The notes under the pieces are model-generated. The model worked only from the letters and a program-made list of their open reading frames with translations, did not search any database and had not been told where the DNA came from. Below are positions 8,699-56,564 of a stretch of DNA of 64,000 nucleotides, piece by piece. Source of the stretch: an uncultured Bacilli bacterium (GTDB lineage Bacteria > Bacillota_I > Bacilli_A > RF39 > UBA660); assembly GCA_947626095.1 (NCBI GenBank), contig CANQQV010000008.1, positions 11,906-75,905 on the forward strand. The letters are read 5' to 3'. Both the position numbers and the translations under genes were made by a program. The first letter of the stretch is position 1. Every line of letters begins with the position of its first letter.

Positions 8699-8757
8699 AA
8701 CCAACACCTCGTATAATCTATAATGTTATTATATCATAAATAATAAAAAAAGAAGAT

Positions 8758-8997
8758 TTATTCTTCTATTTCAAAATCTTCTAAAACGCCATTTTCTTTT
8801 AAAATCAAATTAACTTTTTCAGTAGCAGCATTTAATTTATCACTAGCATATTTAGCAAGTTTCATTGCTTCACTATATTTAGCAATTGCTTGGTCTAAAT
8901 CGACATTACCTGCTTCTAACTCTTTAACTATACTTTCTAATTCAGTTAAATTTTCTTCAAATGTTTTTTCGTTTTTTTCTTCAACTGTCTTGGCCAT
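8758..8997 (-). CDS. xseB: Exodeoxyribonuclease VII small subunit
   Basis: FEENLTELESIVKELEAGNVDLDQAIAKYSEAMKL; follows xseA. Confidence 0.95.
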   Translation of the reverse strand: MAKTVEEKNEKTFEENLTELESIVKELEAGNVDLDQAIAKYSEAMKLAKYASDKLNAATEKVNLILKENGVLEDFEIEE

Positions 8998-14631: not shown

Positions 14632-14649
14632 GTTATCACCCTTTTTAAA

Positions 14650-14848
14650 AAATAAAAAATAGTTATAACTTAAGGACGAGTAAAACCCGCGGTACCACCT
14701 TAATTTATAACTATTGTTATACCCTTATAATATTTAACGCATATTAACGATTTACTCCCAAGCAACCTTCTTCTATTTTCCATATTCTTTTCCACCAACC
14801 AAGAACTCTCTTTAACTTCTAAATAGAATACTCCTCTTGTTCAACGTA
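14650..14848 (-). promoter_or_regulatory. T-box riboswitch, Val specifier GUU
   Basis: Minus strand: GA motif, AGUA bulge, AG box, GGUUGGUGGAA apical loop, GAAG-GUU specifier, T-box AAGGUGGUACCGCG, then hairpin + U-run. Confidence 0.9.
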
Positions 14849-14952
14849 CTTAAAAGTATTATAAAGCATTAGAAATTTAAAAGCAATAAAATTTTATTGA
14901 GTAAAAATAGTAAATACGTTATAATTATATAAGAATAAAGAGGATTGGTATT

Positions 14953-17781: not shown

Positions 17782-17808
17782 ATAAAAAGTAATTACTATT
17801 CATATAAT
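17782..17808 (+). promoter_or_regulatory. Possible sigma-E-type promoter of yqfQ-like gene
   Basis: ATA-N16-CATATAAT; it also contains TATAAT, so a sigma-A promoter cannot be excluded. Confidence 0.4.
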
Positions 17809-17823
17809 ATATTGGTGGTACTG

Positions 17824-18054
17824 ATGTATAATAATTTCTCCCTTTTAAGTATTGTAAGTGGTTTATCTAAAACATTAAATATCGCGAATCAAATGATTCC
17901 ATTGTATAAACAAGTTAAACCACTAATTGCTAATTCTAGTAAAATTTTAAGTAATCTCCAAAGTATTAAAGTTGGCAATAATAAACAAGTTAAGCAAGTA
18001 GTTAATAAGCAACAGCCTTATAAACAAATTAATATGCCAACATTCTTTCAATAA
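17824..18054 (+). CDS. Short VrrA/YqfQ-like protein
   Basis: LSKTLNIANQMIPLYKQVKPLI resembles the YqfQ core; near trmK as in Bacillus. Confidence 0.6.
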   Translation: MYNNFSLLSIVSGLSKTLNIANQMIPLYKQVKPLIANSSKILSNLQSIKVGNNKQVKQVVNKQQPYKQINMPTFFQ

Positions 18055-18060
18055 AAAAAG

Positions 18061-31644: not shown

Positions 31645-31710
31645 AGTAAGTATCACCTTTTTTTATTTTATCACATACCATTATAAAAAGCGAATATTTT
31701 TTCGCTTTTT

Positions 31711-31938
31711 TTAATTGTCATTTTGATGTTTTTTAGTAAAGTAAAGTAAGGCTTTATCAAATTCGTTAGCATTATCTAATTTTAGAACTTCATTATCTTG
31801 ACCCATTTTACGAATACAAAAATCTTTTTCATCATTTTCATTAGTTAAATATAAGTATGTTGTATTATTTTCAGTTATTTCATCAATAATAAAATAATCA
31901 ATACCATTTTCTAATGTTATATATTCTAAATCTTCCAT
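31711..31938 (-). CDS. Small acidic hypothetical protein (DUF1292-like)
   Basis: 75 aa with AGGTG RBS; YFIIDEI..YLYL..EFDKAL. Confidence 0.6.
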   Translation of the reverse strand: MEDLEYITLENGIDYFIIDEITENNTTYLYLTNENDEKDFCIRKMGQDNEVLKLDNANEFDKALLYFTKKHQNDN

Positions 31939-31945
31939 TTCACAC

Positions 31946-54058: not shown

Positions 54059-54780
54059 AATACTTCATCCTTTTCTAAAAATAATATCTTATTAACAATT
54101 TTTTTGATAAATACATTATTTATTAATATATATAATACCATAGTTCCAATAATATTTAATAAATAATCGTCAATATCAAAGGCTCCACTATTCATTAAAA
54201 ACTGGCAAAATTCAATACCTATTATAAAAAGGCTACATATAATAAAGAATTTATACCATTTATTAATAAATTTGGTAATTCGTGGTAAGAAAAGGGCTAA
54301 CGGGGTAAAAGCAATTAAATTACCGACAATATTACGCAAAAAGTATTCTAAGCCAACATTACCATTTTGATAACCAATATATAAATTATTAATAGTTTTA
54401 AATGGCGTGGTATTAGCGGTAATTAGAAACTCATTCTTCATAGCTTGATAATCCAAAAGATCACTAAGACTATGATGAATTAAGTAATTACGACCAAAGT
54501 ATTTATCAAATAAAGTTAAATTAAGAATCATGATTAAATATAATATAAACCATATAGTTAGGTTAATTTTAGGTAATTTATGAAAAACCGGATTGTTAGT
54601 CTTCTTTAAGATTAAGCAACCTATATACATAAATAAAACAGCTAAACAAACTATTTTTATACGTTCGGCTGGAGATGAAAGATGAAAAACAGAGAATTCT
54701 AAGAATAAATAGTTAGTTATCAAGATTGTCGCAATAACATAGCAAATTATTCCTAGACAATATTTAATTTTATTGCTCAT
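54055..54780 (-). CDS. VanZ family membrane protein
   Basis: N.TPFKTI, NIVGNLIAFTPL, IEFCQF, FDIDDYLLNIIG. Confidence 0.88.
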   Translation of the reverse strand: MSNKIKYCLGIICYVIATILITNYLFLEFSVFHLSSPAERIKIVCLAVLFMYIGCLILKKTNNPVFHKLPKINLTIWFILYLIMILNLTLFDKYFGRNYLIHHSLSDLLDYQAMKNEFLITANTTPFKTINNLYIGYQNGNVGLEYFLRNIVGNLIAFTPLALFLPRITKFINKWYKFFIICSLFIIGIEFCQFLMNSGAFDIDDYLLNIIGTMVLYILINNVFIKKIVNKILFLEKDEVL

Positions 54781-54821
54781 ATTACACCTCCACTATTATC
54801 AGTATAACAAAAAATTAAGCC

Positions 54822-54856
54822 AAAAAAAAGATATAGCATCTGTCAACGCTATATCT
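54822..54856 (-). terminator. Intrinsic terminator of the putative ncRNA
   Basis: AGAUAUAGCG-UUGACAGA-UGCUAUAUCU followed by a U-run. Confidence 0.85.
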
Positions 54857-55143
54857 CTGGTGGAAAATATCACTAAAGCTATTTGACAGAATAACTTTGA
54901 TGATACTCACTGATCTAAAATCCACCATCGTACGTACAACCTGATAGTTCAGCGATTCATAGACTAGCAATTATTCTTTAGAAAAAACTTATTAAAAATA
55001 AGTTATGGATAACAAATCATTTTTCAGATTGTTATAAGTAATAAATAATTATTACCTGGATATTATTAAAAAATAATATCAATACTATAATAGATTATAG
55101 TATATAAAGAAATAATAACAATATGTCTACTTTACTATCAGGT
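54822..55143 (-). ncRNA. Putative novel structured non-coding RNA (~320 nt)
   Basis: Own promoter and terminator, no ORF in the supplied track; nested long-range stems, five internal hairpins, two loop-loop complementarities (see findings). Confidence 0.75.
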
Positions 55144-55149
55144 ACTACT

Positions 55150-55178
55150 ACTATATCAATTTTTTTGTTTTATGTCAA
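55150..55178 (-). promoter_or_regulatory. Sigma-A promoter driving the putative ncRNA
   Basis: TTGACA-N17-TATAGT with extended TG; predicted +1 near 55143. Confidence 0.8.
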
Positions 55179-55188
55179 TAGGTTTTTA

Positions 55189-55494
55189 TTAATTAATTTC
55201 ATTTTCACGTATTTCTTTAAGACGAGCTTTGACAAGAAGAACTAATTCCATTGGGGCATTGACCTTAGGTAAGACAATTAAGCTATCTTGTAATTTGGTT
55301 TTTAAACTTTTCTCATCGTTTACAAGATCGGCTTCTTTTCGGTAATCAAAATCAGTAATGGGATTATCCTTAATAAAAGATTTGATATATTCTTCAATGT
55401 CTTTTAAGATATACTCTTTTAATTCGTAATTATCCATATCTCTAATACCGTAGTAAGCTCCAACCAAATATCTATATGTATCTTTTAAATCCAT
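55189..55494 (-). CDS. Small helical hypothetical protein
   Basis: 101 aa with AAGGA RBS; lies directly upstream of the ncRNA promoter. Confidence 0.75.
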   Translation of the reverse strand: MDLKDTYRYLVGAYYGIRDMDNYELKEYILKDIEEYIKSFIKDNPITDFDYRKEADLVNDEKSLKTKLQDSLIVLPKVNAPMELVLLVKARLKEIRENEIN

Positions 55495-55565
55495 GTAATC
55501 ACATCCTTTTTTATTATAGCATAATTTTAGAAGAGAAATATGATATACTATTAATGGTGATAGAT

Positions 55566-56564
55566 ATGTTAATTAGAATATTGTTATTAGCTATTCTAAT
55601 CTTTATAAATGGAGTTTTATCAGCTAGTGAAATAGCTTATTTATCGTTAGATAAGTATGCGATAAGTCGTAAAAGAGACAGGAAAGCGAAAAAAATATTA
55701 AAGACGTTAGATGATGAAAGCAAGTTTTTATCAACCATTCAAATTGGTATAACCTTAGCTGGTTTTTTGGCAAGTGCTTTTGCATCAGAGACATTTACAG
55801 ATATATTAATTGAAGATTATGGAATTTATTTTGTAAGTGTTAACTTTACAGAAAATGTCTTAATGATAGTTATTACATTAATTTTATCTTATATTACTTT
55901 AGTGTTTGGTGAATTAGTGCCAAAGAAAATTGGGCGTTCTAATCCACTTAAAGTCGCTTACTTAACAATTGATTTAATTTCTTTGATTGCTAAATTGTTC
56001 TATCCTTTAATTATTTTATTAACCTGCTCTACCGAGTTAATATGTAAGATATTACATATTAAAGAACATGATGATTCGTTAACAGAAAAAGATATTAAAA
56101 GAATGATAATTACGGGTAGTAAAGAAGGAATCGTTGAAGAAAAAGAAAAAGAATATATTTTAAATATCTTTGAATTTAATGATAAGAAAGCTAGTAAGAT
56201 TATGACACCAAGGGGTGAAATAACTTGTTTAGATATTAATGATACTAAAGAAGAAATAATTAAAAAAATTAAAAATCATCATTATACACGTTATCCGATT
56301 TTAAAAGATAATGAGGTTGTTGGGTATATTAATATTAAAGATTTTATTTACCTACATCAAAATAAGAATTTAAAAATAAAAGATATTTTACATAATGCTT
56401 TGTTTTTTGATAAGAATGAAAAGATAGATGATATTTTTAGAATGATGCAAGAGAATCATGAAACGTTTTCAATTATTACGGATGATGATGAATTTATCGG
56501 CATTTTAACAATGGAAGATGCAATTGAAGAAATCGTTGGAAATATTGAAGATGAGTACAATTAA
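55566..56564 (+). CDS. CNNM/HlyC-CorC family protein (DUF21 + CBS), lacking C-terminal CorC domain
   Basis: NGVLSASEIA, STIQIGIT, VFGELVPKK, IMTPR, YTRYP, GILTMEDAIEEIVGNIEDE. Confidence 0.9.
   Translation: MLIRILLLAILIFINGVLSASEIAYLSLDKYAISRKRDRKAKKILKTLDDESKFLSTIQIGITLAGFLASAFASETFTDILIEDYGIYFVSVNFTENVLMIVITLILSYITLVFGELVPKKIGRSNPLKVAYLTIDLISLIAKLFYPLIILLTCSTELICKILHIKEHDDSLTEKDIKRMIITGSKEGIVEEKEKEYILNIFEFNDKKASKIMTPRGEITCLDINDTKEEIIKKIKNHHYTRYPILKDNEVVGYINIKDFIYLHQNKNLKIKDILHNALFFDKNEKIDDIFRMMQENHETFSIITDDDEFIGILTMEDAIEEIVGNIEDEYN

Follow-up and report, generated by a model that had tools for sequence, protein, structure and literature searches.

Large and intricate bacterial RNAs of no known function are rare, and OLE, raiA, ROOL and GOLLD have each opened new biology or new structural principles. 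The raiA RNA (RF03072), reported in over 2700 species, is a stand-alone and abundant non-coding RNA (ncRNA) with a conserved closing helix P1, variable peripheral stems and a compact core with two intramolecular pseudoknots (PMC12968392). OLE (RF01071, including its short ‘variant 2’) is an ornate ncRNA of the Bacillota; its short variants are typical of the RF39 clade, which consists of reduced-genome gut bacteria (PMC11332333), and OLE homodimers form through kissing loops (PMC11332333, PMC12990946). ROOL and GOLLD are large ornate RNAs forming RNA-only homo-oligomers (PMC12286853). Natural RNA homodimer motifs, palindromic base-pairing and kissing loops among them, are found in HYER1, the cobalamin L5-L13 contact, OLE and ARRPOF: HYER1, a group IIC-derived ribozyme, and ARRPOF dimerize via a palindromic internal segment, HYERs without the palindrome remain monomers, and the cobalamin riboswitches form a kissing contact between a sensing-domain loop and that of a 3′ regulatory hairpin, which is also possible between molecules (PMC12990946). 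The RNA considered here lies in a window of 64,000 nucleotides (nt), the whole stretch of DNA that was analysed, from an uncultured Bacilli bacterium of the RF39 lineage (assembly GCA_947626095.1, contig CANQQV010000008.1, positions 11,906 to 75,905 of the forward strand; its genome is designated G000). It occupies positions 54822-55143 of the window on the minus strand, and its sequence features make it very probable that it is a real, stand-alone, structured and trans-acting ncRNA which belongs to an uncatalogued family and represents a new class.

The locus is the largest gap of the window, with 408 nt (54781-55188) free of open reading frames (ORFs) of at least 90 amino acids (aa), as a first-pass annotation, made from the sequence alone, had stated. 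The near-consensus sigma-A promoter and strong terminator which that annotation placed in the gap are both present. The promoter (55150-55178, minus strand) consists of a -35 box TTGACA (55178-55173), a 17-nt spacer and a TG-extended -10 box TATAGT (55155-55150). With 11 of 12 matches plus the TG, it is the sole site of this quality among 21 promoter-like sites between 54000 and 56000, and close relatives keep its TTGACA and TGnTATAnT. Numbered from the predicted +1 at 55143, the RNA measures 322 nt to the end of its U-tail. The intrinsic terminator, predicted at 54858-54827 (minus strand), has 14 pairs followed by a U-run (one found, versus 0.5 expected from shuffles). The minimum free energy (MFE) of the 322-nt RNA is -91.9 kcal/mol, compared with -54.4 +/- 4.7 in 100 shuffles, none of which was as good (z = -7.99). 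All of the helices proposed beforehand are found in the computed MFE fold: the 10-base-pair closing stem that begins at the predicted +1, the GUAGAC/GUCUAU helix inside it, five AU-rich hairpins, a second domain and the terminator. The five-hairpin junction holds for G000 and its nearest relatives; it is not a family feature. Three features that the first-pass annotation lacked, namely a pseudoknot (Px), a loop-loop pairing (K1/K2) and a palindromic linker, are the most informative ones.

Comparison with known families sets this RNA apart. Rfam 15 at gathering score gave nothing at the RNA, in line with the earlier remark that it bears no hallmark of RNase P, tmRNA, SRP, T-box or common riboswitches, and at E <= 10 the region 54700-55300 gave six matches only, with E of 3-10. 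Twenty homologous loci gave no gathering match; 18 of these gave three unrelated matches at E <= 5. The covariance models of RNase P, tmRNA and SRP have no match at the RNA and neither has that of the T-box (RF00230), though it detected the T-box of the same window. The raiA model has no match in the whole genome at E <= 10. The same holds for the ROOL model (RF03087), a weak test because its control was silent in every genome. A divergent 6S RNA (RF00013), which had been named as an example of an Rfam hit that would remove the novelty, does not come up in the window at gathering score or at E <= 10: the true 6S lies on another contig (C12:13036-13221, 48.2 bits), as do type B RNase P (C24), SRP RNA (C5) and tmRNA (C1). 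Like the present RNA, 6S is a stand-alone abundant ncRNA running from promoter to terminator. In 6S the two ends come together in a single long, interrupted helix around a central bubble; in the present RNA the partner of the 5′ end is nt 196-205 of 322, and nt 206-322 make up a separate domain of P3-P5 and the terminator. From raiA the RNA differs in helices, conserved nucleotides, pseudoknot topology and distribution, being found in part of one gut Bacilli family; with OLE it shares the reduced-genome gut lineage, but the OLE model is silent at the RNA and a genuine OLE sits on another contig. ROOL and GOLLD are much larger and are often phage-associated, whereas the present RNA, for which we can only infer oligomerization, was found neither in viral contigs (pattern scan) nor in phage records (BLAST). 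HYER1 and ARRPOF differ in context and size, and the present RNA has no group II intron signature or Rfam intron match. Cobalamin riboswitches, finally, are cis leaders with a conserved B12-related gene downstream, whereas here the downstream genes vary and no cobalamin model matches. Searches of the literature on RF39 RNAs, on structured RNAs of the human microbiome and on CAG-956, Coprovivens and UBA660 gave no description of the RNA, though large unnamed motif lists may contain it; the motif was sought in 8 of the 10 supplementary files of PMC8040213 and not found.

BLAST within the genus gave three syntenic homologues (86, 82 and 73% identity) and two weak ones. The 3′ domain gave no homologue by BLAST in 400 other genomes of the family, and more distant homologues were reached via synteny and covariance models only. 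Two such models are used here: R1, of the 3′ domain, and R2, from 38 copies. R1 matches 24 of the 27 genus genomes (the three unmatched ones are 65-88% complete) and reveals multiple copies in several of them: G007 has five in tandem, G011 and G026 have three each, G003 and G019 two each; G012 has a second copy, in tandem. The G007 array (L073 193-2240, minus strand; contig C37:9645-11515) consists of five divergent copies at intervals of about 420 nt, all of them equipped with a promoter and terminator of their own. Among 151 genomes sampled from the family R2 matches 14; counted by genus, it matches 13 of 150. Scanning a collection of species genomes with a sequence pattern from one subtype of the RNA gave 63 loci, of which R2 confirmed 51, titled mostly uncultured Bacilli or Tenericutes, Mycoplasma sp. 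CAG:956 and Candidatus Coprovivens, and several of the isolate names indicate animal guts. The remaining 12, whose titles name phyla or groups that are unrelated, are about as many as chance would give. The same pattern gave 45 metagenome loci, 23 of them confirmed by R2, including three titled human-gut metagenome. Four R2-confirmed loci (L107, L119, L149 and L163) are in metagenome-assembled genomes (MAGs) titled Muribaculaceae (two), Erysipelotrichaceae and Eubacteriales, either through wrong titles or through mixed bins; the RNA could thus be a marker of mislabelled MAG bins. Plasmid BLAST returned 23 Borreliella records, each matching 69 nt at 76.8% in the AU-rich variable part only, which we judged to be AT-rich chance.

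The family has a common architecture in a transcript of 262-590 nt (38 aligned copies from 27 genomes). In every copy with upstream sequence read, a -35/-10 pair ends 6-7 nt 5′ of a conserved ACUURAUAG and a terminator closes the 3′ end. From 5′ to 3′ (window positions, minus strand; RNA numbering of G000), the RNA starts with the P1 5′ strand (ACCUGAUAGU, nt 1-10, 55134-55143), which pairs with 54939-54948, and the P2 5′ strand (GUAGAC, nt 14-19, 55125-55130), which pairs with 54959-54964 and appears as GUAAAA/UUUUAU in G008 and as GUGGAAG/CUUCUAC in the G004 group. There follows a variable insert (nt 20-179, 54965-55124), which forms the five AU-rich hairpins in G000, differs in length and sequence in other members and, its five hairpins included, is not conserved across the family; its ‘UUGAAAGAUA’ hairpin loop is restricted to one subclade. 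The P2 3′ strand (GUCUAU, 54959-54964), indicated by the fold and by the alignment of relatives, is followed by the Px 5′ strand (UCGCUGA, nt 189-195, 54949-54955), which pairs with 54907-54913 and in G000 abuts, with a spacer of 0, the P1 3′ strand (ACUAUCAGGU, nt 196-205, 54939-54948), placed by the alignment of 38 sequences. The self-complementary linker comes next (54927-54940, 14 nt counting G-U; core GUACGUAC at 54930-54937), recognized by its symmetric pairing and palindrome statistics. The 3′ domain then begins with the P3 5′ strand (GGUGGA, 54921-54926), paired with 54859-54864 in the MFE of 22 of 22 folded members. The Px 3′ strand (UCAGUGA, 54907-54913) lies in the internal loop of P3, before a conserved GAG, and is identified by RNAalifold and by covariation. 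Folds and covariation define both the P4-P5 hairpin (54867-54906), whose apical loop is K1 (UCUGUCAA, 54883-54890), and the P3 3′ strand (UCCACC, 54859-54864). An A-rich linker leads to the terminator hairpin (54822-54857; loop K2, UUGACAGA, 54839-54846; U-tail 54822-54829), for which the terminator scan and covariation agree. Since Px crosses P1 and P3, it is a pseudoknot linking both halves. All 22 members folded singly share the 3′-domain architecture. A small-protein reading was rejected: there is no conserved ORF, and the longest sense ORF, of 12-93 aa, shifts position between members.

Covariation supports the pairing of P1, P3-P5, the terminator, Px and K1/K2, and the self-complementary linker. 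Two MAFFT alignments were fitted to no structure, while a third, fitted to R1, leans to the structure of the model and misaligned the most divergent subgroups; for this last reason the figures for P1, Px, K1/K2 and the palindrome are taken from MAFFT. For 38 full-length RNAs, 93.9% of the cells of P1, Px, the four inner palindrome pairs and K1/K2 are paired, with a covariation score of 0.307, compared with a shuffle mean of 0.194 (0 of 500 reach the observed value) and 0.061-0.082 when the pairing was slid. For 38 3′ domains, the values for Px, K1/K2 and the terminator are 89.0% and 0.419 (shuffle mean 0.247, again 0 of 500; slid <=0.170), and for P3, P4, P5 and the terminator in the R1-fitted alignment of 23 sequences they are 89.7% and 0.568 (shuffle mean 0.220, 0 of 500; slid 0.093-0.166), with double changes in 30 of the 35 pairs. 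Taken singly, Px has 90.6% of its cells paired and double changes in five of seven pairs (e.g. CG:17/UA:14 and CG:19/UA:16), while 8 of the 10 P1 pairs are standard in all 38 sequences and one is compensatory (AU:30/GC:8). G-U pairs are common in the helices (Px GU:10 and UG:9, P1 UG:20, in 38 sequences), which assigns the RNA to the minus strand and argues against a reading at the DNA level. The earlier argument from G-U pairs for this strand is thereby strengthened: 9-20 of the 38 sequences have G-U at several covarying pairs, and the opposite strand would have C-A there.

The two apical loops of the 3′ domain have complementary sequences; in G000, UCUGUCAA of the P5 loop and UUGACAGA of the terminator loop are exact reverse complements. 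The CUGUC/GACAG core is nearly invariant, with CG/UA/GC/UA/CG in 35-38 of 38 sequences, yet several separate lineages carry compensatory variants: CUGACA/UGUCAG in both G003 copies, in G061 and in two more genera, CUAUCA/UGAUAG and CUGAUA/UAUCAG in one genus each, and UCGUCA/UGACGG in G024. At least six contiguous Watson-Crick complements occur in the K1/K2 regions of 80 of 87 unique 3′ domains, and the duplex has a computed energy of -10.7 kcal/mol. We infer that the terminator hairpin takes part in the function of the mature RNA, beyond its role as a stop signal.

The linker between P1 and P3 varies in sequence and keeps its symmetry (GUACGUAC, GUGUACAC, UUGCAUGCAA, AUGUAAUUACAU, AUAACUAGUUAU, GUAUGCGCAUAC), some versions being palindromic through G-U pairs (AUGUACGUGUAU, CACGUAUAUGUG). 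Its inner four symmetric pairs are 92.8% paired in the 38 sequences (types GC18/AU8/GU5). A palindrome of at least 10 nt is present in 85% of 87 unique members and one of at least 12 nt in 75%, while five control windows taken from these RNAs give 5-23% and 1-9%. These windows replaced shuffles as the control because the base composition of the linker window favours palindromes. In 74 of 86 cases the four central bases are Watson-Crick self-complementary, while by calculation 16 of 256 tetramers (6%) would be, and the self-duplex of the G000 linker has a computed energy of -18.5 kcal/mol. Since the central bases of an even palindrome are unpairable within a hairpin, pairing between two molecules is the best explanation of the pattern.

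The surroundings of the RNA bear on whether it acts in trans. In G000 it is followed by a VanZ-like gene and then by an AI-2E transporter gene. Elsewhere vanZ follows most copies; some stand immediately before the AI-2E gene and some before unknown genes. Downstream in G087 lies the rpsL-rpsG-fusA operon, in G022 and G024 an SDF symporter gene that is convergent, on the opposite strand, and in three genomes the second copies sit after alaS. A same-strand, conserved position before a functionally related gene, as expected of a riboswitch or leader, was not found across the copies read. Because the downstream genes vary or converge, we regard the RNA as trans-acting rather than as a leader, and its own promoter and terminator together with the tandem arrays add strength to the stand-alone reading. 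The earlier proposal that vanZ has its own extended -10 is also upheld: this element (TGTTATACT, 54801-54809, minus strand) lies outside the RNA, reads TGnTATAMT in six of six aligned species and is kept even where a 20-nt insertion parts it from the RNA terminator.

The upstream neighbour of the RNA is a 101-aa ORF (55189-55494, minus strand), for which the Pfam and NCBIfam families searched gave no match. It is always divergent from a CNNM/CBS (MpfA-like) gene, which in the window lies at 55476-56564 on the plus strand, the two start regions overlapping by 19 nt. The 101-aa gene occurs in 23 of 27 genus genomes, with the RNA directly downstream at 19 of the 23 loci. The R1 matches include four genomes with extra ORFs between the two (G007, G002, G022 and G024; G000 has none); those of G007, of about 520 aa (L040 3-1484, minus strand) and 154 aa (L073 2285-2749, minus strand), belong to no Pfam or NCBIfam family. 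The 101-aa protein was considered as a ribonucleoprotein partner and rejected: it adjoins the RNA within the genus only; in G061 and G155 its gene and the RNA are on different contigs, and in G087 it was not detected. Of the 151 family genomes, 21 carry the gene (20 of the 150 genera sampled); among the 13 RNA-positive genomes besides G000 it is present in 6 only, and 14 genomes have the protein without an RNA match; R2 with filters off at 14 loci around the gene in RNA-negative genomes gave a best E of 0.32.

As to expression, an index of sequencing runs places the stretch in DNA runs (rabbit gut, gut metagenomes) and, with small shares, in three RNA or RNA-like runs from three studies. When compared with 54400-55600, the contigs of these three runs all fall within 54870-55125 and leave the flanking genes untouched, whereas the contigs of a DNA run cover the whole region. 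We take this as weak to moderate support for expression. The deepest RNA-library contig (run X7, record 10; 288 nt, depth 22) matches the conserved 3′ domain (54871-54963) and from the start of the variable insert carries 195 nt of different sequence, which suggests expression, in that sample, of a related strain or species whose insert is different. The cautious proposal of the first-pass annotation, a stand-alone ncRNA that is possibly of a new class, has gained a little from the contigs inside the transcript, and more from the absence of an Rfam match and from the homologue and covariation check, in which conservation and covariation among relatives proved strong.

What such an RNA might do can be discussed from its conserved core, which comprises the P1 closing helix formed from the transcript start, the variable insert and the 3′ domain (P3 around P4-P5, then the terminator), with both halves tied by Px. 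Our best guess is that it is an RNA of the same sort as raiA or OLE, serving as a scaffold or binding protein. As for the mechanism, we favour self-association, but only tentatively, with a confidence that ranges from slightly to distinctly below an even chance. A linker segment of 8-14 nt, not fully pairable within one molecule, would pair with the same segment of a second molecule; the outcome would be a homodimer, in which the K1 and K2 loops might also kiss across protomers. We give this homodimer, with or without the kissing, somewhat less than an even chance. A conserved motif of the kind that pairs between molecules in the self-assembling RNAs OLE, ROOL, GOLLD, HYER1 and ARRPOF is found here in the palindrome and in K1/K2. 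The further step, that the RNA founds a new class of bacterial RNAs which assemble with themselves in two or more copies, is more doubtful; it would involve an antiparallel duplex of the P1/P3 linkers and reciprocal kissing of P5 and terminator loops between protomers, and the intrinsic terminator hairpin would double as an interface of quaternary structure.

Several observations weigh against this picture as a whole. Per-sequence shuffles of the linker window gave a weak signal (the observed length is reached by a median of 0.106 of them). In the tandem array of G007 the palindrome is weak or missing in four of five copies, and in one subgroup it is of odd length, with an unpaired U at its centre, a form that suits a small triloop hairpin equally well. 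The K1/K2 pairing could be purely intramolecular. Expression is known from contigs only, which show neither ends, strand nor level; one ‘RNA’ run was guessed to be such, and DNA carry-over is possible in the RNA-library contigs. Finally, the family is narrow: 137 of 150 sampled genera are without an R2 match, and 137 genomes of 25 other families in a class-wide sample gave one marginal site (28.7 bits, E 0.0075).

The strongest competitor is a compact monomer, in which the palindrome is a local hairpin or is held in the P1/Px/P3 junction, K1 and K2 kiss within the molecule and the terminator hairpin is locked beside P3-P4-P5, to give a protein-binding or ribozyme-like RNA. This is a real possibility, if one that we put well under an even chance. 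The odd palindromes AUAUGC-U-GCAUAU, which covary to GUAUGU-U-ACAUAU, fit the triloop hairpin, K1 and K2 are only about 42 nt apart in one molecule (median), and raiA, of similar build, is compact with two intramolecular pseudoknots (PMC12968392). A correlation of hairpin arm lengths, which bears on intra- versus intermolecular kissing, was noisy and confounded by the way of computing. What speaks for the dimer is that the central four bases of even palindromes, unpairable in a hairpin, are nevertheless self-complementary far above the calculated share, and that the hairpins implied would mostly be limited to 2-4 AU-rich pairs.

A base-pairing small RNA (sRNA) or RNA sponge, which would use the loops CUGUCA and UGACAG or the linker as seeds, is unlikely. 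The loop sequences are indeed nearly invariant (35-38 of 38), and multi-copy tandem sRNA families exist, but the loops are complementary to and covary with each other, which mutual pairing explains and which would be an odd coincidence for independent seeds. We give very little chance to a cis-acting role, in which the RNA would be a riboswitch or attenuator leader and regulate vanZ and the AI-2E gene by way of its terminator; this reading is already strongly disfavoured. A distance of 41 nt separates the end of the terminator from the start codon of vanZ, and a kissing loop with an expression platform is known from the cobalamin L5-L13 pairing (PMC12990946), yet downstream genes differ or converge, arrays hold 2-5 complete units in tandem, vanZ keeps its own extended -10, and no riboswitch family matches. 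Marginally less probable still is a divergent member of a known family (6S, OLE, raiA, ROOL or T-box): a closing P1, variable peripheral stems, two pseudoknots and abundance recall raiA, but the five covariance models are silent at the RNA, the 6S, OLE and T-box of the same genome are detected elsewhere, and only the silence of the ROOL control blunts this result. The least probable of all, palindromes acting at the DNA level as operators or as a replication or recombination site, would fit the many inverted repeats and the K2 loop, which as DNA reads TTGACA, but is contradicted by G-U pairing (C-A on the other strand) in Px, P1 and palindromes like AUGUACGUGUAU, by pairs that covary as the sequence changes and by the promoter and terminator that frame the unit.

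Some observations concern the rest of the window and genome. The second largest ORF-free gap of the window (14632-14952, 321 nt) contains a T-box leader at 14669-14853 (minus strand, 127.6 bits), the sole Rfam gathering match in the window; the gaps at 31657-31945 (289 nt), 8708-8980 (273 nt) and 17804-18060 (257 nt) have none. The OLE RNA of the same genome (C5:43457-43942, minus strand, locus L170; 486 nt, 239.1 bits) fits the published short-variant pattern of the RF39 clade. MpfA is reported to anticorrelate with OLE (PMC11332333); the G000 genome nevertheless carries both OLE and the CNNM/CBS (MpfA-like) gene.

If the self-assembly reading is true, this would be an RNA-only assembly like those of OLE, ROOL and GOLLD, but built from a transcript of 260-590 nt, specific to reduced-genome gut Bacilli, human gut species included, and encoded by up to five tandem genes. 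The palindromic linker and the complementary loops make this a directly testable hypothesis of RNA self-assembly, and the shortest member, of about 260 nt, has a size practical for chemical probing and cryo-electron microscopy. The RNA, with a double-pseudoknot core upheld by covariation, is widespread in an uncultured, reduced-genome lineage of the animal and human gut and multi-copy in some of its genomes; small genomes available only as MAGs thus still contain RNA classes that Rfam-based annotation has overlooked.

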